Shown piece by piece: positions 4,495 through 58,995 of a stretch of 64,000 nucleotides of DNA (positions within the stretch are counted from its first letter, which is position 1; every line of letters starts with the position of its first letter). The position numbers were made by a program, and so were the translations under genes. Origin of the DNA: Escherichia phage EC100. The DNA is taken from the sequence record NC_105587.1; one strand, given 5' to 3'. The notes under the pieces are model-generated. The model was given only the letters and a program-made list of their open reading frames with translations. It was not told the origin of the DNA and did no database searches.

Positions 4495-4530
4495 AAAGAA
4501 AAAGGAGACCCGAAGATCTCCTTGTTTTTT
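4495..4530 (-). terminator. rho-independent terminator after nrdA
   Basis: 8-bp stem with UUCG tetraloop (AGGAGAUC-uucg-GGUCUCCU) followed by UUUUU. Confidence 0.65.
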
Positions 4531-18762: not shown

Positions 18763-19071
18763 ATGAGCGAACAGGTAAATCAAAACTATGAAGGACACGT
18801 TGATGACCAGTCCATCATACTTTGGGAGAAGGAGGGAGAACAAGTAAGATTAACAGTATCTGAATTTCGTGGGAATCTATACATGGGTATTCGTTACTGG
18901 CTTCTTGATATTAATGATGAATGGTTTCCAACGAAATCTGGCTTCTCTTTTCCTTACACCCTAGAAACAACATCACAGCTTTTCTATGCGTTTACACAGA
19001 TTCTCAGCGAATCTGAGGTTTTACATGAAGTACAGAAACGAGCTGAAGAACTCAAAGCCAAGAATGCCTAG
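18763..19071 (+). CDS. hypothetical protein
   Basis: 102-aa ORF between two terminators. Confidence 0.45.
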   Translation: MSEQVNQNYEGHVDDQSIILWEKEGEQVRLTVSEFRGNLYMGIRYWLLDINDEWFPTKSGFSFPYTLETTSQLFYAFTQILSESEVLHEVQKRAEELKAKNA

Positions 19072-19088
19072 TTCTTGGCTTTTTCTTT
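19057..19088 (+). terminator. rho-independent terminator
   Basis: GCCAAGAA / TTCTTGGC 8-bp stem followed by TTTTTCTTT; the stop codon lies in the loop. Confidence 0.65.
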
Positions 19089-34691: not shown

Positions 34692-34715
34692 CCTACATAT
34701 CAAATAAATAATAAA

Positions 34716-34750
34716 CCCCAGAGGATTTTGTCCTCTGGGGTTTTCTTTTA
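34716..34750. terminator. bidirectional rho-independent terminator between convergent early and late operons
   Basis: 10-bp perfect stem CCCCAGAGGA / TCCTCTGGGG flanked by an A-run upstream and T-run downstream. Confidence 0.75.
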
Positions 34751-41678: not shown

Positions 41679-44512
41679 TCCACAGACTGTTCTCCATCAT
41701 CCCCTTCAGCTCTAATACGAAAATACAATTTTCTATTTATACCTAGAGCACCGCTGTTCTGGAGAGCAAAATCTGCCTTATTATACGTTAATAAATAGTC
41801 ATAAGTATACTGATTTTCAATACGTACACTTCTTAACATCCTATTTTGTGAATCGTGTATTTCAAGGGTATAAAATATACTCTCTATTATATCTTCTTCA
41901 GGTATTCTATCCCAGGCTAGTTTCACATCTGGGCCAACAAACTCAGTTACATCTCCAGAAGCAGTATTAGTTACCCTAAAATTAGATACTACACTAAGAT
42001 TTTTAGCGGAGTTAAGTTCTATGGACAGAGTCACCGGAGAACTTCTTCTACCATTAATATCTACTGCCCTTATTTCAAATATTGCTAAACCTGCAGGCTC
42101 TCCAATTACCTCTTGGATCATGCGTTCATTGGGATTTGTTTCTAGTTGCTGCACAATATAAGGTTCAGCATGACCGGAATGCACAATAGAGTAGTAAACT
42201 ACATTATTGGTTAGACTCGGAAACCAGGATAACTCACCATTTTTACCTATAGAGCCTACTAAACCGCCAGGAGTAGGAGTATATTTAAAGTCTCTAGGAG
42301 GAAGGACATTGTTACTAATATCAGGAATATCATTACTGCTATTATCAACCTGCTCAGAGTTGATGAATACATCCTCTCCATACTCCTGTAAGGTAACATT
42401 TATCTTTCCTTCTCTAGAGTTTTCCACTTCGTCTACTAGGAAGTACTTTTTATCCCATCCGTAACGATCGTAAGTAAAGGCGATAGCATCATTGGGTTCA
42501 ATCCCTATGAACTGGTATGGTAATGAGAAAGAAAGTGTTCTTGAGTATCTGGATTTCTTAAGTTCTCTGTCTGCAAAACTTCTAGCAGTATAGTAGTTAG
42601 TTATATTTGCAAAAGATAATTGTAATTTTTTATCTAAATTTTTATCTTGCTCTTTATATTTAGAATTATAGAATGTGATGGCATTCGTTTTCCAGCTTAA
42701 TGCAGGATCTACAATAGATGCCTGCACTGAGTTGAATTTATTTCTACCAGTAGTATCTGATAGCTCCAAATCACCGTAAGTATCTAGAAAATTAATCTCT
42801 AATGGAGTATTAGAGTATTTTTCTACAGTAACTCTATACTGGCCAGATAAGTTGTTAATAGCCCCGCCATAGGACTCTAACAAACCTTGCACATTTTTAA
42901 ATACTGATTCAGATGTATCTAGAATAGTATTCATTTGTACTATTTGTCTATTTTCTGCTACTGGGTCAGTCCACCCAACGTATCTCCAGTATGGCTGCCA
43001 AGATACTTGGTATGATTCATCTATAATATCTAGGATAGCAGCTTCTTGTATTAATTGCTGAAGAGGGAACTGATCAATAGTAATGTTTGCGCCATACCTA
43101 TCTGAAGTTAAGTAGTCAAGCGTTTGCCAGATACCATTTAAACTAGTACTATTAGCCGTTACTCTACCATCAGAATGATAGATTTTTATCTTCTTACCCT
43201 GAATTTCAGCACTAACTTCTGGAATCTCAGTTCTATTTTCATTAATAGTAAAGCGCACTACCGCATATGCAGTATCCAATAGCTTATACCTAGCATCCCA
43301 GTATTCAGGTCCATTGCCATTCATATTTTGAAGATAGAACCCTCGTTCTTTCGCTATGTTTACTAATACTTCAGAAGCCGTTTGATTAGATTTCCCATGA
43401 TAAGTCCAAATTCTTATATCACCATTACCATCGTTGTATTTATACTCCTGTCCATGTACGGAAGGGCTACTAGAAGATGTTCCTGATGCTATTCTCTGCA
43501 TGGTATCTCCGGCTACTTTTTTAACACCGAAACAGGTTCTAGCAGAGCTATCATTAGAGTCCATACAAATCATAGGATTATCACCAAAGGAAAAATCAAG
43601 AAAACCGTCTATCTCTCCCTCAGCAAAAGCATATACTACGTAAACTATATTAGGATTGTGTAGTTCTGTATCCGCAAAAACAGGTATTCCAGGTATTTTC
43701 TGTACACCATAAACTACTGGTATATACTTAGCAGCAAGGTTAAAATCTATATCTACTTCTTTAGTAACAGTCTCATAGTATTTTTTAAGACTATAGCTTC
43801 TAGATAAACCAAATAGTTTTTTCTTAGACTTTAGTTTATATCTTTCTTCCTGTACCTGATACTTTGCTAGAATAGAGATACTTTTATTGGCATGAAAGAA
43901 TCCATAGTCTTCTTGATATTCAGGTCTTTTAGCACCGTTAGATGGAACTAATTGTCCTGCTACAACTTCAAGTCCTCTATGAGAAGCATCATCAGTATAT
44001 CTACCATTAACTCTATCGAAGTCATAGAACTGATTAGAACAATTCCAAGTAATTGTAGAGGTTCCAACTCCAGAAGTACTAACGTTGTCCTTAATACCTC
44101 CCCCAGTAATTCTCCCCCTAAAATATAGTAGAGGACCATTTGTATCTGGGTCTACAGGTAAAATGGAGCCATCCTCCATAATAATTGCTTGGTGAATTGA
44201 TACTATTCTATCTAAAAAGGACACACCATTCTGCACTAATTTCAGTACTTCATCCTGCGCTGTACCCGTAATAGTAAAAGATAGACTGCCAATAGATAAA
44301 TCTCTATTTTGTTTATGTGTGCTAATGGACTTAACCTTACCGGCCTGGTACAAAATACCATTATATAGTACATCTCTAAAATAATCAGTTAAATAAATAA
44401 AAGCAGTACTAGTACCAGTAGAGCCAGGTAATTCTAGGGAAATTAGACTAGCAGTTTTTATTCTGCTATTATTTTTTAAGTAGTTTCTAGCACTATCTAG
44501 TATTTTCTTCAT
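41663..44512 (-). CDS. baseplate hub protein (T5 pb3-like)
   Basis: 949 aa, follows the distal tail protein gene; assignment by size and position. Confidence 0.6.
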   Translation of the reverse strand: MKKILDSARNYLKNNSRIKTASLISLELPGSTGTSTAFIYLTDYFRDVLYNGILYQAGKVKSISTHKQNRDLSIGSLSFTITGTAQDEVLKLVQNGVSFLDRIVSIHQAIIMEDGSILPVDPDTNGPLLYFRGRITGGGIKDNVSTSGVGTSTITWNCSNQFYDFDRVNGRYTDDASHRGLEVVAGQLVPSNGAKRPEYQEDYGFFHANKSISILAKYQVQEERYKLKSKKKLFGLSRSYSLKKYYETVTKEVDIDFNLAAKYIPVVYGVQKIPGIPVFADTELHNPNIVYVVYAFAEGEIDGFLDFSFGDNPMICMDSNDSSARTCFGVKKVAGDTMQRIASGTSSSSPSVHGQEYKYNDGNGDIRIWTYHGKSNQTASEVLVNIAKERGFYLQNMNGNGPEYWDARYKLLDTAYAVVRFTINENRTEIPEVSAEIQGKKIKIYHSDGRVTANSTSLNGIWQTLDYLTSDRYGANITIDQFPLQQLIQEAAILDIIDESYQVSWQPYWRYVGWTDPVAENRQIVQMNTILDTSESVFKNVQGLLESYGGAINNLSGQYRVTVEKYSNTPLEINFLDTYGDLELSDTTGRNKFNSVQASIVDPALSWKTNAITFYNSKYKEQDKNLDKKLQLSFANITNYYTARSFADRELKKSRYSRTLSFSLPYQFIGIEPNDAIAFTYDRYGWDKKYFLVDEVENSREGKINVTLQEYGEDVFINSEQVDNSSNDIPDISNNVLPPRDFKYTPTPGGLVGSIGKNGELSWFPSLTNNVVYYSIVHSGHAEPYIVQQLETNPNERMIQEVIGEPAGLAIFEIRAVDINGRRSSPVTLSIELNSAKNLSVVSNFRVTNTASGDVTEFVGPDVKLAWDRIPEEDIIESIFYTLEIHDSQNRMLRSVRIENQYTYDYLLTYNKADFALQNSGALGINRKLYFRIRAEGDDGEQSVEWASI

Positions 44513-45123
44513 AAACTTTCCCGTAAATTTAATGAGATGCCGGAATATGTTCCGTTATTATTTAATGTAGATCCGAAAGCATCACCATTCATGAGTTTTG
44601 TTCTAAATAGTATTCCGTTAAACACTGGTTTCTCAGCCCCAGTAGTAGTTATAAATAAATCAGGGTATAAGTTTATAGACCACGTATTGCCTGATTTATT
44701 GAATGATGTTATTTTATATACTTTTGGATGGTTAGATAGCTTAAATAGATCCCCCGGTTTTGGAGTACCGATAAGAAGTCCTTTTGTATCCATAGTTATA
44801 TTAGAACCCTTCTGTCCAGCAGGTATACTTACTAGACTAGTATTACCTCTAACTCTAAAAGCTTCGTATTGTGGTAATATAACATCTATATAACCACCAG
44901 TCCTTTTGTATTCTAGAATAAAAGCATCTAGAACACTATATTCATCTGGAAATAATTCTGGGTAAGAAATATTTATACCCCAGTATTGAGCGGATACCTT
45001 AACTTCGTTAACTTTACCATTTGGTAACTCATCACGAATTACTGGGTCATTATCAATCAGGTTAACACTTTCGAATCCTAAGCCTGAAAGTTCCGGATTC
45101 GTGTATGGGTCTGGTAATCTCAT
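44509..45123 (-). CDS. distal tail protein (T5 pb9-like)
   Basis: 204 aa, directly downstream of the tape measure gene. Confidence 0.6.
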   Translation of the reverse strand: MRLPDPYTNPELSGLGFESVNLIDNDPVIRDELPNGKVNEVKVSAQYWGINISYPELFPDEYSVLDAFILEYKRTGGYIDVILPQYEAFRVRGNTSLVSIPAGQKGSNITMDTKGLLIGTPKPGDLFKLSNHPKVYKITSFNKSGNTWSINLYPDLFITTTGAEKPVFNGILFRTKLMNGDAFGSTLNNNGTYSGISLNLRESL

Positions 45124-45194
45124 AGTTAATTTCTCCTCTTTAATAACAATATTATAATAGTATTAGAAAATTTTATCAAGAAATTTTTATTTTT

Positions 45195-45225
45195 CCATAA
45201 AGAAAAGGAGGACTCAAAGTCCTCC
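45195..45225 (-). terminator. rho-independent terminator after the tape measure gene
   Basis: GGAGGAC / GTCCTCC hairpin followed by UUUUCUUUAUGG on the minus strand. Confidence 0.6.
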
Positions 45226-45232
45226 TCCAGTT

Positions 45233-48200
45233 TTAAGAATTTCCTAATGTTTTCAGACTAGCACCGTTCTCATTCAGAGCTAATTCTACTGCGTCTCTTA
45301 GAGCACTACTATTACTAGAAGCAAACTCTCTAAAACTTGCAGCATCCATAGCACTAATATTCAAGATGATAGGTCTTCCTGAAGTTGAGTTAGATGAGGT
45401 TTTTAACTCATCATTAGGTGTAGCTTTCATAGGAACCATAGGGGTAACTACTTCTGTACCATGCTCACCCATTTGATAGCTAACCCCAGGGTACATATTA
45501 CCACCCTCAGCACGAGGAACGAAAGAGTTAGCACCGCCTATGCCTTTATCGCCACGAATATAAGATAATTCACCAGCATTAGCAGACATGGACACATCTA
45601 TATTCTTCTGACGTTCTCCTAAGGTTAAATAACTAGTTGTATCCGCCCCAGAATCTGCAATAGAAGACATGCCAGATGCAGAAGATGCTTGTGCTAACGC
45701 CAATGCACCCGCTAAACCTGCCGCAACCATTAAAGGAATAGAGAACGGGTATGGTACAGCTGTTGCCGCTTGCATTACAGCTACTGCAGTTTGGATGATA
45801 ATCTGCTTCTTAGCTGCGTCTTGTTGAATCTTCAGCTTTTCAGCTTCCAACTTCTTCAACTTAGCTTTAGATGCTTCTGATTTACCATCACGTTTCTGTT
45901 CTGCTGCAATAGCCTGATCAATTGCACTAACTTGTTGGCTAGTACTATATTGAATCATCGAGGCTACAGTCTGCATACCAGAAGCAATCATAGACGTAGT
46001 ATCTAGGGATCCCTGGGAGAACTGAATCATAGAGTTAGTTAAATTACCCATGCTTTGAGCTACAGCAGTTGCTTCGGAATTTAACTCAGATAGTTTAGAA
46101 ATTGCTTGGTCATACGAAGACATCCTATTCTGCATATCAGCAAAATCTTTATCTGCTCCAGATAGGCCAGTTGTAGGAGTATAAGTAGCTCCAACAGAAG
46201 AACCTACCTGTTGCTGCATCTGAGCATTACGTTGTGCTGTTAAAGCTGACATCTGAGCCCTTGTCTTAGCTATTTCAGCATTCCAACGCATTTGCTCATT
46301 AGCGTTACCTTTGGTAAGTTCTTTCATCTGAGTATAAAAATCTAACTGCATTTCCATTTTTTGCATTTCCCCTGCCAGAGGGAACATGGAAGTTAGAGTA
46401 TTTTCAAAGGCTTCTTGCCTTTTACTGGTCATTTCAGCTTGCTGGTTCTGACGGAATTTCCATATTTCACGTTCAATTTGGGCTTGAGAACGTCTAGACT
46501 GTTCAGCCTCTTTCTGTTTGTCCGCTTGTTTTGTATACCATTCGTACTTCTCTTTTTCAATGGTCAATTCAAGATTTAACTGTGCTAGACGATACTGAGT
46601 ATCTGTCATAGTACGGTTATTTAAGAGAGCTATCTCACGATCTACACCAAGAATTTTATCTGTGTAATCCTTGACCTTCTTCTGAGCTTCCATACCCTGA
46701 TTGGTAAGTTTAAGTTTCTCCAGCTGAATTTTTTCAATTTCTTTCTCAACAGCTTTATTTCCCTGGTTTGTTTGAAGAACACGGCGTAAAGCAGCTTCTT
46801 GCTCTTCTAACTGTTGGAGTTCTAAACGCCTACCGGCTTCCTGTGCTTTTTCTTTATCCTTAGTTTGGTTATATACATCAGCTATCTTCTGTTGAACTGC
46901 TAACTGATTTTTAGTTTCATTACCGGTTAGTTTAACATACTCAGATAAGGCCTGAGACGCAGTTTTCATTTCAGACAGAGTGTTATAGCCTAGGTTAAGA
47001 TTTTTAACGTACTCATCTGCACTTTTACCAGTACCTAGAGATAGAGATTCTATATTTTTTATAGCATCTGCTAAAGTAGCACTAGTTTTAGCAGCAGTAT
47101 CTGTATTCTGAGCAACGTTCTGTATGTCATTAGCTAAGTCACTAGCCGTTTTCTTAGTCTGATTGTACGCTTTCTGCTGCTCAGTTAGTCCTTTTAATAC
47201 AGTAGAGTTAAAATCGTATACAGCATCAGGATCAGTAGTATCTCTCTGTAGATTAATCTGTTTCTGAAACTCTGGATTAGCTTTTGCAGCAGCAGCACCC
47301 GCAGCTTGATAGGCTGACTTCCAAGCATTAAGGTTTTCAGTAGAATCTTCTACTTCCTTACCTAGTCTGGTTACTTGTAGACCCATAGCCGCAGTTTCTT
47401 CTACGAACTTTTTATTAGCTTCGGAAGCACCAGCAGCAGCAAGACCAACAGGAATACCTTCACCAACTTGACGTATGGCTAGTTTTGTATAGAAATCTGC
47501 TTGTTCCATTCGTTTGTCGAACTCAGATTTTAGCTTATTACGCTTATCAAGAGATTCCTTATACATATCTAGAGCTTTATTATAGCCTTCTTCAGAAGCA
47601 GCCAAACTTAAAGCAACAGCACCAACGTTGGTAGGATCTATCTGTCTATTAGTTTTTTCTTGCGCTCTAGCTGCCTCAGCAGATATCGAAGCCTGAGAAG
47701 TGTAGAATACAGTATTGATAGCATCAATTACTGGCCCTAAATACTTAGCAGCAGCCTGCTGAATCTTTCTCAGGGCGGCATCTGCATTAGCAGCAAATTG
47801 CTCCCATGGAGTTGCACGTAGTACTTCATCTAGGTAGCCAAACCTCTTAGTAGATTCAGCAATTACCGCGTTAGCGTATGCTTGTTGTTTCTGGAAAGTG
47901 GTAAGACTATTAACATTATATGTTATACCTGTGTTTGCAGCATTTAACTGTTTAACATAATCGGCGTATGCGTCATTAAGACGGATGGTGACACCAAGTT
48001 CATCCAGAAGTTCGATTTCTTGTTTAGATACGCCCTTAATTACACGGTTAAGTGCATCAGTCATATCAACACCAAGAACAGCAGCAGCACGACGAGCTAC
48101 TAAACCAAATTTATTAAGTTGTTCGGCATCAAATCCATAAGCAGATGCTGAAGATGCCTGTCTCATTGCTTCCTCAAAAGAAATAGCATATCCAGCAGCT

Positions 48201-48916
48201 TCTTGTAGTGATCTAGCAAGGGTCTGAACAGGAGTACCTGTCTGAGTACCTACTATAACACCAAATTTTTCTAGACGATTTAGCTGGTCACCTAGTTTAA
48301 GTTGTTCGAACGCTGATTGCAAAACGAAGATGTTGGAAGCAAGAGCTGCGTACATAATAGGTAAACTACCACCTATCTTAGCCATTGCTGCAAAATCACG
48401 AGTTGCACCACGTGCTGAACCAGAAGTATTACCAATAGCTCTAGAAGCTCTACCAGCGGCACCAGCAGTGTCATTAAAACCCCTAGCTGTGCCACCTAAT
48501 GCTCTATTAGTATCATATAACCTATCTTGAACTTTCTCTGTTGCAGCTGCAACATCATTGCCCATTGTTTTAACAGATCTAGAAACCCCATCGAATCCAA
48601 CTTCTAGCTTATCAGCTACCTCTATCATTGTAATAGCAAGGTCGTCCAGCTTAGTTCCTATATCATTAATAGATTTAGTAACACTAAGCATACCCCTACT
48701 AGCTTGCATTTTAGTAAGACTTTTTGCTGCTCTATCTGCTGCCCTCTCAATGGAGTATAGAGTTTTGGGCATTTTACCTAACTGTTCATTCGTTAGCTCA
48801 GAAGCCGCAGCAGCATTCTCTAATGCATCAGATACGTTTTCAATAGACTTTGCAGTACGAGTTGCCCCCTTCTGTTTAACGTCTATTAGTAATTCTCGTA
48901 TTAGCTTATCAGTCAT
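45233..48916 (-). CDS. tape measure protein (T5 pb2-like)
   Basis: 1227 aa, long coiled-coil and Ala/Gln-rich stretches, hydrophobic segment near the C-terminus. Confidence 0.85.
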   Translation of the reverse strand: MTDKLIRELLIDVKQKGATRTAKSIENVSDALENAAAASELTNEQLGKMPKTLYSIERAADRAAKSLTKMQASRGMLSVTKSINDIGTKLDDLAITMIEVADKLEVGFDGVSRSVKTMGNDVAAATEKVQDRLYDTNRALGGTARGFNDTAGAAGRASRAIGNTSGSARGATRDFAAMAKIGGSLPIMYAALASNIFVLQSAFEQLKLGDQLNRLEKFGVIVGTQTGTPVQTLARSLQEAAGYAISFEEAMRQASSASAYGFDAEQLNKFGLVARRAAAVLGVDMTDALNRVIKGVSKQEIELLDELGVTIRLNDAYADYVKQLNAANTGITYNVNSLTTFQKQQAYANAVIAESTKRFGYLDEVLRATPWEQFAANADAALRKIQQAAAKYLGPVIDAINTVFYTSQASISAEAARAQEKTNRQIDPTNVGAVALSLAASEEGYNKALDMYKESLDKRNKLKSEFDKRMEQADFYTKLAIRQVGEGIPVGLAAAGASEANKKFVEETAAMGLQVTRLGKEVEDSTENLNAWKSAYQAAGAAAAKANPEFQKQINLQRDTTDPDAVYDFNSTVLKGLTEQQKAYNQTKKTASDLANDIQNVAQNTDTAAKTSATLADAIKNIESLSLGTGKSADEYVKNLNLGYNTLSEMKTASQALSEYVKLTGNETKNQLAVQQKIADVYNQTKDKEKAQEAGRRLELQQLEEQEAALRRVLQTNQGNKAVEKEIEKIQLEKLKLTNQGMEAQKKVKDYTDKILGVDREIALLNNRTMTDTQYRLAQLNLELTIEKEKYEWYTKQADKQKEAEQSRRSQAQIEREIWKFRQNQQAEMTSKRQEAFENTLTSMFPLAGEMQKMEMQLDFYTQMKELTKGNANEQMRWNAEIAKTRAQMSALTAQRNAQMQQQVGSSVGATYTPTTGLSGADKDFADMQNRMSSYDQAISKLSELNSEATAVAQSMGNLTNSMIQFSQGSLDTTSMIASGMQTVASMIQYSTSQQVSAIDQAIAAEQKRDGKSEASKAKLKKLEAEKLKIQQDAAKKQIIIQTAVAVMQAATAVPYPFSIPLMVAAGLAGALALAQASSASGMSSIADSGADTTSYLTLGERQKNIDVSMSANAGELSYIRGDKGIGGANSFVPRAEGGNMYPGVSYQMGEHGTEVVTPMVPMKATPNDELKTSSNSTSGRPIILNISAMDAASFREFASSNSSALRDAVELALNENGASLKTLGNS

Positions 48917-48924
48917 ATTTTATT

Positions 48925-48964
48925 TTTCCCAATAAAAAAGGCTCTGGGCAAATCACCCAGAGCC
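48925..48964 (-). terminator. rho-independent terminator directly upstream of the tape measure start
   Basis: GGCTCTGGG / CCCAGAGCC 9-bp stem followed by UUUUUUAUU; the ATG follows 23 nt later. Confidence 0.6.
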
Positions 48965-48998
48965 AAGCCTCATCGTGGAACGCCCATTGGAGGAAACT

Positions 48999-49490
48999 TT
49001 ACCGTGCTCGAGATTTGGCATGCGGCTTAACGTTAGGTATTCTACCGTTTTGCGGCTTATGCTTCTCAGCACGTTTACGTGCAGCGTCTACAGCTTTAGC
49101 ATCAAATATATTGATAATGTGTAGAACAAATTCTTTTTCTATAGGGTCGGTAATCCCATAAATATCAAATAAAACACCTAAAGCAGCCTTGTCTTTACCT
49201 ATAAAGATAGGGAAGTCACCAGGTATGAAACAGTCAACTAGACTATTATAAATATTCATACTAATAGCTACAATAGGTGGAAAGTCTTCAAGTTCAACAG
49301 GCATAGCCTTAGGATCAGGTTCTATACCCATTGACTCACAAAGTATTAAATATTGTTGTTTAGTCATTTTAGATGCTGAGCTTTTAATACACTTATCTGC
49401 AAAATCAGCAACAGCATCTAGTAGTTCTTTACGCTTTTGAGCTACGAAAAGTGTCGAGGTGGAACACTGTCTGGTTGATCCAAGAATCAA
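48999..49490 (-). CDS. tail assembly chaperone, downstream frame (possible frameshift extension)
   Basis: 163-aa ORF in the +1 frame relative to 49429-49848, overlapping it by 62 nt; the only start is a non-ATG codon. Confidence 0.35.
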   Translation of the reverse strand: MILGSTRQCSTSTLFVAQKRKELLDAVADFADKCIKSSASKMTKQQYLILCESMGIEPDPKAMPVELEDFPPIVAISMNIYNSLVDCFIPGDFPIFIGKDKAALGVLFDIYGITDPIEKEFVLHIINIFDAKAVDAARKRAEKHKPQNGRIPNVKPHAKSRAR

Positions 49491-49848
49491 ACGCAGCAGA
49501 GTTCTGCATAAGCATTACAGCATTATCACGACTAAATGGAACTTCAGTAGTAGGATCAGCATCTGTCTCAATCAGCATCAGCTTTTCAACGTCACCTACA
49601 GTCAAACCAGTCCAACCTTTAATTGCAGCATCAACGAAAGCTTCAATAAACTTATCGTCATCCTGTACTTGAATTAGAGTACCATTAACCCACTCATCGC
49701 GTTTGGCGGAAGAGATAACACGCTTAGAGGTAGCACGAGACATATAGTTAAGCTCTAGCTTAAAGTTTGGCATACCTGGGTATGAAAGAGTAATAGTACG
49801 GGTATCAAGGGTAATATCTTTTAAATTAATCATTTTTAATTTCTCCAA
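49429..49848 (-). CDS. tail assembly chaperone
   Basis: 139 aa immediately upstream of the tape measure gene. Confidence 0.5.
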   Translation of the reverse strand: MEKLKMINLKDITLDTRTITLSYPGMPNFKLELNYMSRATSKRVISSAKRDEWVNGTLIQVQDDDKFIEAFVDAAIKGWTGLTVGDVEKLMLIETDADPTTEVPFSRDNAVMLMQNSAAFDSWINQTVFHLDTFRSSKA

Positions 49849-50728
49849 AGAAATCTATTCTCACTGGGTCTGAAGAAGCAGTAGGTATAATATCCCACTC
49901 AACTTTATACACATCTGAGAAATCTAGGCGTTTTGTAATACGTGCTAAAGGAAAATCTATAGAAATACTATTATTTCTTATATTTAAAGGTACATCGGTC
50001 TCTGGTTCGATATTGTAAACCATATCTCCAGCAAAACGTTTTAAGTAATATAGAGAAATGGTTGCCGAAGCATTCATTTCATTTACATAGGCTCTTTTAT
50101 TATTATAGATTTTATTTATATCAAAAACACTCTTATCTTCTCTCCAAGAGCATTGCTGTTGAAAAGATAAAGAGGCGGAAATAAGGCCAGGTAAGATGCT
50201 ACCGTTAGTAGAAACTATTACCGGGCTATAAGACATTGCTTCACCCTGTATAATAGAAGCTGCTTCTCTATATGTAGATACTTCGGAGAATTTCCCTGAC
50301 TCAATACCAACGTTAAGAATTGGTATATTCTTATCTAAAGAAAAATCTACTGTAGATACATAACAGTTTTCAAAATATACACAGTTGTTATCTTTATTTA
50401 CTATATAGATATTAAACATAATAGGTTCAATATTGTTACTATATAGTGGTAGTAAGAAAGTATTACCTTTTCTGTCAAAACCTAGCCATTCAAAAAAGTT
50501 AGCTTCAGTAAGTGTATTACTAAAATTTATTGCTAGAGAGATAGAAGAAGGAGTTTGAGCATTTATAATAGAGTCTGCATAGTTAGTTCTACGATGAATA
50601 GTCCTACGAAGGGTCTTAAATTCTTCGTAGGATGTTTGTACATCATAGTTTGATAGGGCATCAAAATGAAATGCCCTACCATCATACTCAACTATAACTT
50701 TTGACTCTCGCATTAGAGAGTAGTACAT
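49826..50728 (-). CDS. tail structural protein (T5 p140-like)
   Basis: 300 aa between tube and chaperone genes; assignment by size and position. Confidence 0.4.
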   Translation of the reverse strand: MYYSLMRESKVIVEYDGRAFHFDALSNYDVQTSYEEFKTLRRTIHRRTNYADSIINAQTPSSISLAINFSNTLTEANFFEWLGFDRKGNTFLLPLYSNNIEPIMFNIYIVNKDNNCVYFENCYVSTVDFSLDKNIPILNVGIESGKFSEVSTYREAASIIQGEAMSYSPVIVSTNGSILPGLISASLSFQQQCSWREDKSVFDINKIYNNKRAYVNEMNASATISLYYLKRFAGDMVYNIEPETDVPLNIRNNSISIDFPLARITKRLDFSDVYKVEWDIIPTASSDPVRIDFFGEIKND

Positions 50729-50732
50729 TTAT

Positions 50733-52139
50733 TTAACCACCAGCACTAACTGTGATAGTTTTAGTACCTTCTACACCAGAACCGTCTTTAGCTACAGCCT
50801 TCACAATAACTGCACCAGTTTTAGAAGCGTCAGCTGTTAATAGCCCAGATTCTGCATCAATCGTAGCTGCGTTACCACTAGAAATAGACCAAGTTACAGC
50901 CTTATTAGTAGCTTCTGGAGGTGTTACCTCAACAGACATCTGTAAAGTATTACTATTTGTTACAGAAACAGCCTCACCTGCAGATTTAACTATAATGGAT
51001 TTAACGGGAACTGGAGGAGTTTTAGCACCATCTCCGGTAGCAATTAGATTCGCTATTGTAGTTTTGGTATACTTGTTAGAGAAGCCTAAGTATCCTTCGT
51101 CACCAGTATCCAAATCAGTAGGAATAGCTTTAAACTCTACTGAAGTACCAAGTACATCATCAGTCTCAATAGTAGGAATGTTAACGTGCGCCTGTTTAGC
51201 AACTAACACAGCTGCCGGACGTTCATCATCGTATTCACCACCCAAAATAAGTGCAATTTCAAAACGGTTAACTACCTTAAGGGTTTTGACAAGATCTTTG
51301 TACAGTTCCATAGAACCAAGAGACTTATCATTAAGGTATGCTGTCAAAGAACCCGTTAACTCAAACGCACCTGTAAATGAGCCGATTGGAATATTTACAC
51401 GGGACATAATATTCGGGGTTAGGTACGTGATGTTGTTATTAATGGTAAAAGTACCACCAGTAATAGGAATATCATATGCCTTATCAGAATCCATATCCTT
51501 AATTTTTAGGATAGTTAACTTGTTCTTAATGTAAGAACTCTGAATAGTCATATAGGTTTCATCATCAATACCTAGTGCATCTGGATCAAATGGTTGGCTA
51601 TCTAACGGGATGAGCTGATTACCATTACCAGACCAAGTTACACGACCAATATCCTCAATATCAACGTTAACTTCTGCCTGGTTGATCTGGCAAGAGTCAA
51701 TATAGCTCCATGCTTTGTCAGTAAGAATGTAGATGTGCAGCATAGCCAACTCATGATAAGAGTTATCTTTAAAGTTAACCATGAAGTTAGCTTCATTATT
51801 ATGCGCACCTGTGTCTCCCTCAAGGTTTAGTGCTTTACCACTAGAAAGAGCATGCCATAACATGTAGTCGGGAACAATCTGTTTATTAGAGGTTTTATCC
51901 TTGTATGGCAGGATATAAGTAGAAAAACTCCACTCAGCCGCATTTAAGGAATCGTTAAAACGTTTAGAACCACGAGTAGGCCGCGGACCAGCTTCGTTAA
52001 CAGTAATATCTGTTGAGTTACTGTCCTGACCCCAAGAAATATCATCCTGAACTAGAATCTCTTGCGTGTTGGTCTTATCGTGACCAGTCTTAACCGTAGA
52101 CACGAAGATTCGAGTATTACGTAATAGTTGTAAAGACAT
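50733..52139 (-). CDS. major tail tube protein with C-terminal Ig-like domain (T5 pb6-like)
   Basis: 468 aa; C-terminal ~90 aa with bacterial Ig-like (Big_2-type) pattern; AGGAG SD. Confidence 0.75.
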   Translation of the reverse strand: MSLQLLRNTRIFVSTVKTGHDKTNTQEILVQDDISWGQDSNSTDITVNEAGPRPTRGSKRFNDSLNAAEWSFSTYILPYKDKTSNKQIVPDYMLWHALSSGKALNLEGDTGAHNNEANFMVNFKDNSYHELAMLHIYILTDKAWSYIDSCQINQAEVNVDIEDIGRVTWSGNGNQLIPLDSQPFDPDALGIDDETYMTIQSSYIKNKLTILKIKDMDSDKAYDIPITGGTFTINNNITYLTPNIMSRVNIPIGSFTGAFELTGSLTAYLNDKSLGSMELYKDLVKTLKVVNRFEIALILGGEYDDERPAAVLVAKQAHVNIPTIETDDVLGTSVEFKAIPTDLDTGDEGYLGFSNKYTKTTIANLIATGDGAKTPPVPVKSIIVKSAGEAVSVTNSNTLQMSVEVTPPEATNKAVTWSISSGNAATIDAESGLLTADASKTGAVIVKAVAKDGSGVEGTKTITVSAGG

Positions 52140-52165
52140 TTAATTATTTTCTCCTAATCTGTAAC

Positions 52166-52651
52166 TTATCTGCGAAGTGACCTACGTGGAGGCTGATACC
52201 TCACTGTTACATTTATTTCTGCTAAACCATATGGGGCCAGTAGACCCTCATCTGTACTAACTGATGTAATGCTCATATCAGTCGCCTCACATGGGAAGGT
52301 CGATCCATTAGGTTTACTAACAGTATATTCTAAATTTCCACCTGTGTCAATAACGGTTTTTATATCCGCTACGAGTTTTTCAAGTTGCTCTTGAATGTCT
52401 GTTTTCTCTTTATCATACACCAGGATAGGAAGTTCTAAAAACATCCACTGTTGACCTGAGGGAAGATACTGCCCAGTTTCAGTTCCGATATGAACTGCAA
52501 CATAAGGAAACTCTCTTATCTCCTCAAACTTATAAGTTTGACGTGAGACGTTTCCATACAAGTTATTAAAATATTCATCTGGTTGGGAGCCATCCATTTG
52601 TTTGGCTATTCGATCAACCAGAGCTTGTGCTATACTTGTTCTGTGATCCAT
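52166..52651 (-). CDS. putative tail terminator / head-tail joining protein
   Basis: 161 aa directly upstream of the tube gene. Confidence 0.4.
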   Translation of the reverse strand: MDHRTSIAQALVDRIAKQMDGSQPDEYFNNLYGNVSRQTYKFEEIREFPYVAVHIGTETGQYLPSGQQWMFLELPILVYDKEKTDIQEQLEKLVADIKTVIDTGGNLEYTVSKPNGSTFPCEATDMSITSVSTDEGLLAPYGLAEINVTVRYQPPRRSLRR

Positions 52652-52654
52652 TTA

Positions 52655-53422
52655 TTAGGTTCCTTGATTAACCTTAATTTTGTATCTGGAGTGAATTAAG
52701 TCTCTTGCAGCTTTAGCTATCGCCTCTCCAATTAATCTTTGAGGGTTTCTAGCACCTGGGTAGGGTCGTAATGACAATCTTCGATATGTGGATACTGCAG
52801 GATTAAATACTGAATATGGACGTACCATATAATTATATGTAACATTTAATTCAGGAGCACCTTTGCTAGTTCCAACATCTCTAAGCATAACATCTTTAAC
52901 TTTTAGAGAATTTGCAAAACGACCTGTTCTAAATTTAAGTGGAGCTCCTGCTTTTTTCATATCCTTTATTAAGTATTCTTTAGCAACCAACTCCAGAATA
53001 ACCTTCATATTGCTATTAGATACAAAACGTCCTGAAGCACCTGTTACTGCACCTGAGTATCCATCCTCTACGTCTCTAGGATCCCCAAAGTTTACCTGTA
53101 CTCTGCCTGTAGAACGTTTTTTACCTACAGCGGATTTTTTGCCAGCGGTTGCTTGTATTAAACTCTCTAGAGCACCTAAATCTCCCGAAAGATCTAAACT
53201 AGAGGATACGGCTTTTAGTATAGAGGCTGTTCTAACATCAAGAAGATCTTGTGATACGGGTTTTGAAAATTTAAAAGATACTTGAGCAACAGTACCATCT
53301 CTGGTAGGATCTTTTAACCCTGTCTCAACAGAGTACACAACAGTATTCTTATTATTTTCAGATCGTCCTGCAGTATCTAGCTGCTCTTTAATAATTTGTT
53401 TAGCTAGATCGGAAAGAGACAT
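52655..53422 (-). CDS. hypothetical structural protein
   Basis: 255 aa in the head-tail connector block. Confidence 0.4.
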   Translation of the reverse strand: MSLSDLAKQIIKEQLDTAGRSENNKNTVVYSVETGLKDPTRDGTVAQVSFKFSKPVSQDLLDVRTASILKAVSSSLDLSGDLGALESLIQATAGKKSAVGKKRSTGRVQVNFGDPRDVEDGYSGAVTGASGRFVSNSNMKVILELVAKEYLIKDMKKAGAPLKFRTGRFANSLKVKDVMLRDVGTSKGAPELNVTYNYMVRPYSVFNPAVSTYRRLSLRPYPGARNPQRLIGEAIAKAARDLIHSRYKIKVNQGT

Positions 53423-53934
53423 TATACTCTCCTATATACTTCAATAATAGTACGAATATGCTCTGGGATACCAGACTTAGTGCTATTGAAGGTTACTGTT
53501 TCACCACCAATTGTTTTAGCTTGGCGATAATCTTGTTTATGCCAATGATCTACTAGCATACACGCTGCAAGTTTGAGATCTTCAGGCACTGGGTTAAATC
53601 CACCTTGTGTATATGCTACATCCATATAACCTTCTGGAGGATTAAATTTGAGAAGGATAATACCGTCAGAGTATAGCTTATACTGCTCTGGGTCAATCTC
53701 ATTATCGTTAATCGTCACTTTAGTTACGGAGGTAGCAGATGGTGAACTCAGAAAATATTTCCTACGTGTAGGTTTTGTATTGATTAACTGGTCTACCGCA
53801 TCAGCATCATCCATGCCTAGAAGGCTCGTAATCAGCGCATTGGCAGCAGTAATCATCATTTCTACACCAGATTCTAATTCAGGTCGTTTTAAGCTACCAT
53901 ATAATCTATAATCTTCGGCTGTGATGATTTGCAT
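53422..53934 (-). CDS. putative head-tail adaptor / head completion protein
   Basis: 170 aa; N-terminal MQIITAEDY...L pattern typical of head-tail connector proteins; first gene after the capsid terminator. Confidence 0.45.
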   Translation of the reverse strand: MQIITAEDYRLYGSLKRPELESGVEMMITAANALITSLLGMDDADAVDQLINTKPTRRKYFLSSPSATSVTKVTINDNEIDPEQYKLYSDGIILLKFNPPEGYMDVAYTQGGFNPVPEDLKLAACMLVDHWHKQDYRQAKTIGGETVTFNSTKSGIPEHIRTIIEVYRRV

Positions 53935-53939
53935 TTATT

Positions 53940-53974
53940 TTTCCCAATAAAAAAGGAGAGCCGAAGCTCTCCTT
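53940..53974 (-). terminator. rho-independent terminator after the major capsid gene
   Basis: AAGGAGAGC-cgaa-GCTCTCCTT hairpin followed by UUUUAUUGG on the minus strand. Confidence 0.65.
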
Positions 53975-53993
53975 ATCGGCTGAAAAGCCTGTA

Positions 53994-55370
53994 TTAAGAT
54001 GCAGCGTAAGCACCAGATACAACGCCGTTTTCGAAGTAACGTTGCAGGTTAACACGCTGAGTAACGTAGTACGCATCACGCTGTTTACCAGCTTGGCGCT
54101 CACGTTCAACAGTAACAGCACGCTGACGCGGCATTACGAAGTTATCTTTATAAACAATAACTGCGAACTCTGCAGAGTTAGCTTTAGCTGGGAAGTACTC
54201 AGAAACTACAACCGGCAGACCATAAATACGACCAACCTGACCCTGCAGTTTAACAGCATCATTACCAACCTGTGCAACATCCTGCCATTCTTCATCTTCC
54301 AGCAGATCGTAGTAAGCATCCATAGATACGATCAGTACCAGTTTGCTCAGTTTCAGACCATGACGGCCCAGTTTACGACGCAGTTTAGAGATAGTTTTAG
54401 CAGTTACCAGAACAGAACCATCAGCTTTAGCTTCAGTAATAACTTTAGCACTGTCGCCTTCAGCCAGTTTCAACAGACCTTTCGGCTTACCAGTACCATC
54501 ACCAGTCATAAACGCTTCTTCGATAGAAACAGCATGTGCTTCGATCAGGCGCTTACGCAGCAGCGGTAGCAAGGAGAAGATTGCATCTTCTTCAGTTTCA
54601 TCAGTAATGAATGACTTAGCAGCCAGTTTATAGGTTTTGAACTGAATTTCAGTCAGAGCACCTTTAACTTCGTTACCAGTAGTAGTGTCAGTACCGTATG
54701 TGTTAGCATCTACCCAAGTAGCTTTACCAGCATCTGGTTCAACCAGCATAGTAAGAATTTTGCTGGACATTGGCAGTTCTTCAAACAGAGCACCAACTAC
54801 CAGTTCTTTCTGCAGATCACGAATAATACGCTGAGAGAAAATAGTTTCATAGCTTTCACTAGAAACTTCTACTGAAGAGGACTGGTTTACAGTTTTCAGG
54901 TGTCTCTGGCCATGTTCGGTATCAAATACACCTTTTTCCATCACGTAAGACAGAAGAACCAGTTTTTCAACTTCATCTTCAAAGTTTTCCTGAGTACCGT
55001 ACAGTGCTTTAGCTACGCTATCACCAACGAAGGAACGTCCTTCACGAGCTGCCAGCAGAGATTTGATTTCGTCCTGAAGACCAACAATAGTTTCCTGTTG
55101 TTTTTCTACGGTCTGTGCGAACAGTTCATTACTCTTCTTAGATTTCTCATCCAGCGACTTAACCAGTTCCAGAGCCTCTTCCAGACGCTTACGGTCTTCG
55201 CCAACTGCTTTAGAAACCAGGTCATTCATACGAGCCAGTTCTTTTTCTTCCTGCTCTTTACGCATACGTTCAGCTTCCTGAGCTTTCTGAGCAGCGGTCA
55301 GACCTTCCAGAGATTTAGCCAGATCACCCAGACCAAGTTCTTCTTTCAGCTTATTAATATCAATAGTCAT
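53994..55370 (-). CDS. major capsid protein precursor (HK97 fold with N-terminal delta domain; T5 pb8-like)
   Basis: 458 aa; N-terminal ~150-aa coiled-coil scaffold-like domain, then capsid body; strong codon bias; terminator downstream. Confidence 0.85.
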   Translation of the reverse strand: MTIDINKLKEELGLGDLAKSLEGLTAAQKAQEAERMRKEQEEKELARMNDLVSKAVGEDRKRLEEALELVKSLDEKSKKSNELFAQTVEKQQETIVGLQDEIKSLLAAREGRSFVGDSVAKALYGTQENFEDEVEKLVLLSYVMEKGVFDTEHGQRHLKTVNQSSSVEVSSESYETIFSQRIIRDLQKELVVGALFEELPMSSKILTMLVEPDAGKATWVDANTYGTDTTTGNEVKGALTEIQFKTYKLAAKSFITDETEEDAIFSLLPLLRKRLIEAHAVSIEEAFMTGDGTGKPKGLLKLAEGDSAKVITEAKADGSVLVTAKTISKLRRKLGRHGLKLSKLVLIVSMDAYYDLLEDEEWQDVAQVGNDAVKLQGQVGRIYGLPVVVSEYFPAKANSAEFAVIVYKDNFVMPRQRAVTVERERQAGKQRDAYYVTQRVNLQRYFENGVVSGAYAAS

Positions 55371-55387
55371 TTTTAAATAATTCTCCG

Positions 55388-56020
55388 TTATTCTTTAACG
55401 TAGCCTAAAGCTATCGCAAGTTTTTCTAGTTCAGAAAGATTACGTTCTTGAGCTGGGACAGCTTTAGAACTTATTGCAGTAAAAGATTTACGCCATTCAG
55501 TATAATCATGACCATTCATGCTCTTAGCGAGATTGAACGTTGAGTCCTGATTACAAGGTACAGAAACTACCGAAACTTCGTATAGTTCTAAATCTTTAAT
55601 AATAAATATATCAGTAGCTTCATCCCACTCTGCATCTAGGCAGCGGAATCCGATACTAAAAGTTTTCAGTACACCGTTTTTAATTAGTGAAAAGATAGCC
55701 GGATCAGAACTTTCATAGATCTCGCATTCTATTTCGAGACCCATTTCAGTAGGATTAAGATCAATACACTTGCCGATTGGACGACGATGGTCGTGTCCGA
55801 AAAGAATAATCGGGTTTTTCATGTAGTTAGCAAGTGCATTAGATGTTTTCCATGCCGAGGCAGGAATTACATCACCAGCGCGATCTTTACTAATTGTATT
55901 AGCGAATCCACGGATTTTTACAACACCTTCTTTGGATTCGCTATCAATAGATTTAATATAAGCATCTAAATGAACCGGTGCTGATTTTAACTTGTTATAG
56001 TCAATAGCAGCTTGTGTCAT
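55388..56020 (-). CDS. prohead protease (HK97 S78-like)
   Basis: 210 aa, directly upstream of the capsid gene; prohead-protease-like composition with conserved His and Ser. Confidence 0.7.
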   Translation of the reverse strand: MTQAAIDYNKLKSAPVHLDAYIKSIDSESKEGVVKIRGFANTISKDRAGDVIPASAWKTSNALANYMKNPIILFGHDHRRPIGKCIDLNPTEMGLEIECEIYESSDPAIFSLIKNGVLKTFSIGFRCLDAEWDEATDIFIIKDLELYEVSVVSVPCNQDSTFNLAKSMNGHDYTEWRKSFTAISSKAVPAQERNLSELEKLAIALGYVKE

Positions 56021-58824: not shown

Positions 58825-58954
58825 AGAATCTCCTACACCTCATGTAGAGCATTAATTTTTCTTGTTTACGTTCTATTATGGGAGAAGTTCTCCCGATCAA
58901 TGAATATAGTATACATAATCGTATCGAATTTGTAAAGGGGATTTTAAAATGCAG

Positions 58955-58985
58955 GAATGGGATACCAACTGAGTAGTATCCCATC
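58955..58985 (-). terminator. putative terminator after the terminase large subunit
   Basis: ATGGGATAC / GTATCCCAT stem followed by a T-rich tract on the minus strand. Confidence 0.4.
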
Positions 58986-58995
58986 CTATATTTAT

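Follow-up and report, generated by a model that had tools for sequence, protein, structure and literature searches.

What is the role of a hairpin followed by a nearly fixed A/T-rich tract that leads straight into the start codon of a phage structural gene? The question is raised by Escherichia phage EC100, of which we analysed a stretch of 64,000 nucleotides (nt) from record NC_105587.1 (hereafter the window). Its late structural genes are all on the minus strand, and matches of bases 44000-56000 to 556 phage records assign it to Tequintavirus (Demerecviridae), with 98.3% identity to Escherichia phage EC105 and 86% to T5 (query cover 87-100%). The initial annotation described three such places on the minus strand: site 3 (53931-53974), between the genes of pb8, which is the major capsid protein (MCP), and of the head completion/adaptor protein p144; site 2 (48915-48964), between a chaperone gene and the gene of the tape measure protein pb2; and site 1 (45186-45225), between the pb2 gene and that of the distal tail protein pb9. 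It read them as a single reused module, in which a partial terminator is coupled to a late promoter or translation-initiation signal, that could set expression ratios among late genes. The three sites are indeed present at these positions. The best explanation of their sequences, and one that we consider probable, would combine leaky terminators with weak translation initiation at sites 3 and 2, and a terminator with the late promoter P-G25 at site 1.

The three hairpins look like intrinsic (rho-independent) terminators of the late structural operon. They are the top three matches to a hairpin plus T-run on the late-gene strand between 44 and 64 kb, and they start 5-37 nt past stop codons. Their stems, of 9-11 pairs, are GC-rich on the transcribed strand, and the hairpins alone fold with energies of -14.5 (site 3), -19.1 (site 2) and -15.5 kcal/mol (site 1), corresponding to folding z-scores of -2.8 to -3.9. 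At site 3, the core hairpin is GGAGAGC-TTCG-GCTCTCC at 53972-53955, with an extended form at 53974-53953. Directly 3' of the stem comes a U-run, which is U6 then AUU at sites 3 and 2, and UUUUCUUUAU at site 1. The T5 record AY587007 carries a "putative rho-independent terminator" at all three positions, and the records of Klebsiella phage Sugarland and Serratia phage Slocum likewise have terminators at these three junctions (and place ribosome-binding site (RBS) features of 3-4 nt right behind them), as does that of Providencia phage PR1 at sites 1 and 2. No covariance-model match was found in Rfam at E<=1 for bases 44000-56000 on both strands.

In all Demerecviridae genera examined, Vibrio phages included (9 lineages), each of the three junctions carries a hairpin plus T-run, with compensatory stem changes among relatives. 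At site 2, four of the nine pairs have changed on both sides in a 9-sequence alignment. At site 1, the stem sequence is different in each genus, yet the hairpin and T-run are always there. Finally, the site-3 stem shows one compensatory change, from G-C to A-U, in two relatives (L008 and L011), and is entirely different in Vibrio phages. When the window is completed with the other 45 kb of EC105, about 20 strong hairpin-plus-T-run sites are found genome-wide. The linker tail and an adjoining start codon are features of sites 2 and 3 only; at the other predicted terminators, promoter-like sequence comes next.

The near-identical tract that had been reported for three sites is exact at two of them. 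The 22-mer CTTTTTTATTGGGAAAAATAAA is found at 48919-48940 (site 2) and 53934-53955 (site 3), and thus twice in 64 kb, where no third match exists with up to 3 mismatches; 100 shuffles gave none. The resemblance of site 1 is statistically weaker, as only a degenerate, gapped pattern matches it, and this pattern has 5 matches (at 4 distinct places) where 1.4 are expected. The site-3 hairpin is followed by TTTTTTATTGGGAAAAATAA and then by the ATG at 53934, and the site-2 hairpin (48964-48940) by TTTTTTATTGGGAAAAATAAAAT and the ATG at 48916, so that the tract does run into the start codons of the adaptor and tape measure genes. The site-1 hairpin (45227-45205) is followed by TTCTTTATGGAAAAATAAAAATTTC; the gapped match to the linker tract at this site is CTTTTCTTTATGGAAAAATAAA.

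At sites 2 and 3, the linker appears to be a U-tract followed by a weak Shine-Dalgarno (SD) translation-initiation region of the next gene. The SD is GGGA, whose duplex with the anti-SD reaches -4.2 kcal/mol at both sites, among the weakest of 19 late-gene starts (-1.4 to -11.6 kcal/mol); clearly independent late-gene starts range from -5.4 to -11.6 kcal/mol. The earlier remark that no conventional SD is present was nearly right, although this weak one exists. The distance from GGGA to ATG is 8 nt at site 3 and 11 nt at site 2. In T5-like variants, GG is always retained (as GGG, GG, or AGG after ATTATT), with a T-run of 5-13 and a GGG-ATG spacer of 8-12 nt, and in Vibrio relatives a canonical SD takes the place of GGGA, GGAG or GGAGG being located 7-8 nt from the ATG (TTTTTTATTGGAGGTAATAAAATG, TTTATGGAGAACAAGATG, CGTATGGAGAAAACAATG). 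The motif search that had been suggested finds the linker GG in all relatives examined and, within the window, the 22-mer at sites 2 and 3 only. Compared with half-shuffled controls, the linker alone is essentially unstructured; folding it as an AU hairpin with the SD in the loop (minimum-energy fold) yields 0 to -3.7 kcal/mol, no better than these controls, and was therefore rejected. Both start codons are supported: N-terminal sequencing of pb2 is noted in T5 record AY692264, and all 170 residues of p144 have been modelled by cryo-EM (PMC11313276; PDB 8hqo, 9ilp).

Alternatively, the linker at sites 2 and 3 could be, or contain, a late promoter or UP element. T5 record AY587007 (2005) has a "putative late promoter T5P40" that spans the site-3 hairpin and linker and reaches 40 nt into the adaptor gene, and the same A-rich tract is found upstream of the -35 in a real promoter, P-G25 at site 1. 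However, scanning for sigma-70 hexamer pairs from the hairpin to 40 nt into the downstream genes retrieved none at either site. The sole candidate (TGCAAA, 17 nt, TATAGA) has 3/6 and 4/6 matches, its -10 being without the last T. It is located inside the adaptor coding sequence, and transcripts initiated there would begin beyond the very ATG from which p144 is made. Nor is it kept in Sugarland or more distant relatives. In addition, T5P40 was predicted when the adaptor gene was called 26 codons too short, and our analysis does not support its treatment of site 3 as a promoter. We thus regard a promoter in the linker as highly improbable. As no promoter is predicted and there is no room for one between hairpin and ATG, the adaptor and tape measure genes must be transcribed by read-through. 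Of the composite proposed by the initial annotation, the terminators are retained, being syntenic and annotated in relatives, as is the putative translation-initiation region at sites 2 and 3, whereas the late promoter in the linker is not.

Site 1 is built differently. Its terminator is followed by P-G25, named "promoter P-G 25" in AY692264 and "putative late promoter T5P39" in AY587007, which has 11/12 hexamer matches in the sigma-70 scan; the A/T-rich AAAAATAAAAATTT precedes it and AAAGAGGAGAAATTAACTATG comes after its -10. Late transcripts from PG25 and PJ5 have been seen by primer extension from 30 min after infection (PMC7472727), and T5-type promoters have an AAAAATT tract near -43 (PMC3326045). 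The A-rich tract of site 1 is the upstream (-43/UP-like) region of P-G25, not an RBS, and site 1 resembles sites 2 and 3 only since an A/T-rich promoter upstream region comes after its U-tract. Other genera retain the order of terminator, A/T-rich tract, -35 and -10, while hairpin and tract differ in sequence. The tract itself is not conserved beyond close T5 relatives, and the intergenic region is not more conserved than its flanking genes (identity of 0.68-0.71 versus 0.60-0.73). With its terminator followed by P-G25 and a strong SD, and with a tract that is unconserved outside close T5 relatives, site 1 does not fit the idea of one module reused in three copies. As a side observation, the pb9 RBS downstream of P-G25 (45121-45144, minus strand) reads ATTAAAGAGGAGAAATTAACTATG, which we take to be identical to "RBSII" of the pQE/pDS expression vectors. 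For the T5 late region with P-G25 and P-J5, an early source is reportedly Brunel et al. 1983 (NAR 11:7649), a reference of PMC7472727.

In the explanation that we favour, polymerase coming from high-copy genes (capsid pb8 at site 3; tail tube pb6 and the chaperones at site 2) would mostly halt at the hairpin and U-tract, and the fraction reading through would carry the next gene, whose start codon is located 20-23 nt beyond the stem. The linker would act as the U-tract and then as a weak, unstructured, A/U-rich initiation region, made of the GGGA SD and an A-rich spacer. Low read-through and weak initiation would together hold p144 and the tape measure far below capsid and tube. At site 1, the tape measure transcript would end, and the strong sigma-70 promoter P-G25 and a strong RBS would restart expression for the baseplate genes. 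P-J5 would re-boost transcription for the tail tube, as P-G25 would after the tape measure gene. Sequence anatomy, synteny, covariation and annotations are observed here, and P-G25 activity, the p144 N-terminus and copy numbers come from the literature, whereas we infer termination, leakiness and translational weakness.

The tape measure protein is present in a few copies per tail. For T5, the published numbers are 775 MCP, 12 p144 and 6 p142 copies, and 40 trimeric tube rings, that is, 120 tube copies (PMC11313276). The two terminator-RBS cassettes are located at the two largest step-downs in required dose. Such a placement fits the expression-ratio tuning that had been suggested, of capsid relative to adaptor at site 3 and of tail tube/chaperones relative to tape measure at site 2.

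Several points weigh against this explanation. The 11-nt spacer of site 2 is long for an SD. Termination at the three sites, and its efficiency, are predictions, and our literature search retrieved neither 3' ends of transcripts nor read-through measurements from T5-like phages. In T5, an open reading frame (ORF) with a CapR-domain/treble-clef zinc-finger is placed right after TTTTTTATT of site 2 (T5p137; L001 6389-7201), and the pb2 start overlaps its stop codon. As this ORF keeps pb2 apart from the site-2 terminator, tape measure expression does not strictly depend on the linker. Moreover, the site-3 stem is otherwise invariant in enterobacterial genera while those of sites 2 and 1 covary freely. 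Finally, the logic of a terminator plus a weak RBS leaves unaccounted for both the extreme conservation of the site-3 cassette and an invariant element of ~30 nt upstream of site 2.

The extent of this conservation is best seen at site 3. The adaptor proteins of PR1, Proteus phage RP7, Slocum and Sugarland are 28-66% identical to p144 of the window, and flanking coding DNA shows an identity of 0.61-0.77 in the same comparison (62-66% for PR1). The cassette itself is identical at 45/45 positions in PR1, 42/45 in RP7, 40/45 in Slocum and 42/45 in Sugarland. Over the 24-kb late region, no exact match to PR1 is longer than the one in this cassette (46 nt), and the longest matches to RP7 and to Sugarland (32 nt each) are found in it as well; these runs exceed any exact run in the capsid, portal or terminase genes. 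Overall, module identity is 0.89-1.00 at site 3 and 0.80-0.87 at site 2, versus 0.56-0.77 for flanking coding DNA. The 22-mer appears to recur because one constraint, of unusual strength, acts on two terminator-RBS cassettes.

Such identity could also stem from homing endonucleases that drive gene conversion at the two junctions, instead of from selection on a function beyond terminator plus RBS. Some relatives do carry extra free-standing genes exactly at both junctions (L008, L011 and L026 at site 3; T5 and Vibrio phages at site 2). In Vibrio phages, the tape measure gene is separated from the site-2 cassette by a gene of 253 aa, for which no homology to the T5 insert ORF was found. At site 3, the three relatives have an extra gene of ~650 nt between the capsid stop codon and the hairpin, the cassette staying with the adaptor gene; the inserted ORF has its own hairpin, a palindromic promoter-like sequence and a GGAGG SD. 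Judging from these inserts, which look like homing-endonuclease-type insertions, both terminator junctions appear to act as insertion hotspots accepting extra genes. However, identity drops abruptly on both sides, at the ATG and ~5 nt upstream of the hairpin, where tracts of co-conversion would be expected to extend into flanking coding sequences. Conversion would also need exchange between phages of different host genera, and the inserted genes are missing from most genomes. We therefore judge this origin of the identity very unlikely. The inserts at both junctions nevertheless indicate that the site-2 terminator and its upstream element go with the upstream transcription unit.

This upstream element (TCCTCCAATGGGCGTTCCACGA) is non-coding and family-wide. 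From T5 to Vibrio phages, its core, TCCTC-N2-4-GGGC(G/A)TTCCACGA, does not vary, although the chaperone and tape measure coding sequences beside it can barely be aligned. The window has a single copy of the element, as does each of the 31 IMG/VR contigs in which it is found, all of them resembling T5 in size or synteny, and we therefore rejected a promoter class or a repeat. The matches listed in bacterial and metagenome contigs were scattered over unrelated taxa, without an adjacent hairpin and at chance level by a rough estimate, so that we rejected a wider occurrence; at least two further T5-like contigs were recovered. A coding function was likewise rejected, as the frame relative to the upstream stop differs between the window and PR1 (read by eye), and a 5-codon mini-ORF (ATGGGCGTTCCACGATGA) within the element is not kept in RP7 or PR1. 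Searching the 67-nt site-2 region against 5,426 E. coli genomes for a host target or homologue gave no match, nor did searching the element against Rfam, and RNAalifold found no conserved internal structure in it. As for a possible T5 nick site, its putative motif GCGC is not present.

A conserved segment also precedes the site-3 terminator. GCCG(A/G) is kept in T5-like phages, Sugarland, Slocum, RP7 and PR1, next to a small stem that covaries (GGCT/AGCC versus GGCA/TGCC in PR1). We also note that GCCGA is complementary to UCGGC, formed by the terminator loop plus 3' arm.

Such segments raise the possibility that the site-2 and site-3 cassettes are sequence-specific regulatory RNA operators, at which a factor or an alternative RNA pairing sets read-through or translation. 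A module identity above that of flanking coding sequences, with the longest exact shared runs of the late region at site 3, and a single-copy, family-wide element upstream of site 2 would be in keeping with such operators. At site 2, UUCC(A)C of the element would pair with UGGGA of the linker and mask the SD on read-through transcripts. T5-like phages, Slocum, Sugarland and Thalassa are predicted to form this pairing around the hairpin. It reaches P>=0.9 in 5/8 lineages when a 20-nt flank is used, a level equalled by 1-15% of shuffled flanks; in the full intergenic RNA, P is 0.42-0.82 in 4/8 lineages (T5-like, Slocum, Thalassa) and ~0.16 in Sugarland. Many of the pairs involved are G-U, and hence possible only in sense-strand RNA, and an indel in the element (GAUGA in T5-like phages, GUGA in Sugarland) is matched by GGG versus GG in the linker. 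By manual inspection, GGGCGUU can in addition pair with AAUGCCC (terminator loop plus top of the 3' arm) over 5-9 bp in most lineages, failing in phi3; this would be a candidate antiterminator, in competition with the terminator stem.

On the other hand, SD masking is supported neither at site 3 nor, at site 2, in RP7, PR1 and phi3. The total energy of flank pairing is no better than with shuffled flanks, and a "clamp" helix around the terminators, likewise no better in energy than with the 5' flank shuffled, is retained as a minor hypothesis, with SD pairing supported at site 2 only and in some lineages. RNAalifold finds no conserved structure in the element, and ~7 independent lineages are too few to test covariation. 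Neither is a protein known to bind it, nor does Rfam give a match. On balance, we think that regulatory operators of this kind are unlikely. With the same reserve, and expecting that it will rather prove wrong, we mention that the site-3 cassette (GCCGA, UUCG hairpin, linker) and the site-2 cassette (TCCTCC...GGGCGTTCCACGA, hairpin, linker) might form a new Demerecviridae family of cis-regulatory RNAs, whose partner would set read-through and/or translation. As partner, one may think of a late protein of the phage, of a host factor or of anti-SD pairing within the RNA itself, and one possible purpose would be to couple tape measure synthesis to its chaperones. Alternatively, a CCUCC-type seed might allow the fragment of 3' untranslated region (UTR) that ends at the site-2 terminator to function as a small RNA.

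Finally, hairpin and flanks could constitute an RNase III/RNase E-type processing or stability site, as known from the intergenic R-sites of T7. Cleavage on the U-rich 3' side would let the 3' hairpin protect the upstream (capsid or tail) mRNA, while the downstream mRNA is freed before the RBS. Hairpins at 3' termini stabilise mRNA, and strong sequence conservation is typical of such sites. At site 2, a lower flank helix, an internal loop and the upper stem would add up to ~20 bp, and an AU-rich single strand beside a stable hairpin would suit RNase E. However, the lower helix is a weak one with many G-U pairs, does not differ significantly from shuffles and is missing at site 3 in most lineages. 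Moreover, the canonical U-tract right after the stem is a terminator signature that RNase III does not need. Processing as the main role of the hairpins is thus quite unlikely, and leaky terminators coupled to weak initiation are still preferred. The features on which this preference is based are listed below, together with the late gene order.

Table 1. Late structural genes and regulatory features of the window, in the order of transcription (minus strand)
Feature	Position	Strand	Details
Terminase genes		minus	before the portal gene
Portal gene	start 57723	minus	
Protease gene	start 56020	minus	
Major capsid protein pb8 gene	53994-55370	minus	stop TAA 53996-53994
Small hairpin GGCT-TTTC-AGCC and conserved GCCGA	53976..53989	minus	between pb8 stop and site 3 terminator
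Site 3 putative terminator hairpin AAGGAGAGC-TTCG-GCTCTCCTT	53953..53974	minus	19 nt past pb8 stop
Site 3 linker	53935..53954	minus	TTTTTT (53954-53949), ATT, GGGA (53945-53942), spacer AAAATAA, ATG of p144
Head completion/adaptor p144 gene	53422-53934	minus	ATG 53934-53932
p143 and p142 genes		minus	between p144 and pb6
P-J5 promoter	52350-52322	minus	TTGACA, 17 nt, TATACT; record AY692264 and hexamer scan
Tail tube pb6 gene	start 52139	minus	
p140 gene		minus	between pb6 and chaperone ORFs
Two overlapping chaperone ORFs	49429-49848 and 48999-49490	minus	stop codon of the second 49001-48999
Non-coding element GTTTCCTCCAATGGGCGTTCCACGATGAGGCTT	48965..48997	minus	immediately upstream of site 2 hairpin
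Site 2 putative terminator hairpin GGCTCTGGGT-GATTT-GCCCAGAGCC	48940..48964	minus	downstream of chaperone ORF stop
Site 2 linker	48917..48939	minus	U-tract (48939-48934), ATT, GGGA (48930-48927), A-rich spacer, ATG of pb2
Tape measure pb2 gene	45233-48916	minus	ATG 48916-48914, stop TAA 45235-45233
Site 1 putative terminator hairpin GAGGAGGACT-TTG-AGTCCTCCTT	45205..45227	minus	5 nt past pb2 stop
Late promoter P-G25	45151..45204	minus	rest of T-tract and A-rich TCTTTATGGAAAAATAAAAATTTC, -35 TTGATA (45179-45174), 17 nt, -10 TATAAT (45156-45151)
Strong RBS AAGAGGAGAAATTAACT and ATG of pb9	45121..45140	minus	anti-SD duplex -9.1 kcal/mol
Distal tail protein pb9 gene	start 45123	minus	pb3 follows

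Other features of the window were encountered along the way. The two chaperone ORFs overlap by 62 nt, the downstream one being offset by +1 nt relative to the upstream one, an arrangement compatible with candidate programmed frameshifting; the T5 annotation gives the second ORF its own, later start. A 13-bp hairpin without T-run is located directly after the large terminase gene (58955-58986, minus strand), and downstream of it comes a promoter-like TTTACA, 17 nt, TATACT (58908-58936, minus strand, 10/12); together they may be another terminator/promoter or processing cassette. In the early region, a near-copy of the site-3 hairpin (GGAGATCTTCGGGTCTCC, 16/18 identical, UUCG loop) is found at 4502-4523 on the minus strand, where TTTCTTTGAAATTTTACTTGCTA comes next, with an early-type -35 (TTGCTA) and not a start codon. 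Lastly, strong hairpins at 34713-34743 and 19054-19082, whose stems are flanked by A-runs and T-runs, have terminator scores on either strand and are probably bidirectional terminators between convergent early transcription units.

If the explanation that we favour is correct, leaky terminators would explain how T5-like phages obtain 775 capsid subunits versus 12 adaptors from one operon. When phage genera with different hosts are compared, no DNA in 24 kb of structural genes is more conserved than the non-coding 46-mer of site 3. Should sequence-specific recognition turn out to be true, the cassettes would represent a compact, portable device for setting expression ratios, as well as a new regulatory RNA motif, in a phage family that has wide use both in therapy and as a supplier of parts for expression vectors.

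The core of our finding, intrinsic terminators and a known promoter that are annotated in T5, is ordinary and essentially already known. The T5 late region (AY587007, AY692264) has the same hairpins at the same three loci, with 86% identity, and its site-1 promoter is P-G25; unlike the present analysis, the T5 records make no mention of an identical tail running into start codons, of family-wide conservation or of the upstream element. Sites 2 and 3 share with classical attenuators and RBS-sequestering leaders a terminator that is preceded by a conserved segment with potential alternative pairing (the SD and the pyrimidine-rich motif at site 2). They differ from them in that this pairing is statistically unsupported, and in that the element is located in a 3' UTR/intergenic region and not in a 5' leader. 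The intergenic RNase III sites of T7 are also conserved hairpins between late genes, which leave a protective 3' hairpin and free the downstream RBS. Here, by comparison, a canonical U-tract follows the stem, and the lower helix that RNase III would use is weak and statistically unsupported.

Predicted stem-loop terminators in intergenic regions also delimit the late gene clusters of the siphophage SPP1 (PMC6316719). Host and sequences are different in that case, and neither a link to weak RBSs nor conservation is reported there. A further parallel may be drawn with Tphi of T7, an incomplete intrinsic terminator right after the major capsid gene 10, beyond which the lower-copy tail genes are expressed by read-through. 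Both systems follow the same logic of a leaky terminator behind the most abundant structural gene. However, Tphi acts on T7 RNA polymerase, whereas the terminators described here would act on the host sigma-70 enzyme, and Tphi is not fused to the next RBS. To our knowledge, Tphi displays no cross-genus sequence invariance comparable to that of the present cassettes, and what appears to be unusual in the T5-like phages is the strength with which two such cassettes are conserved across the family.

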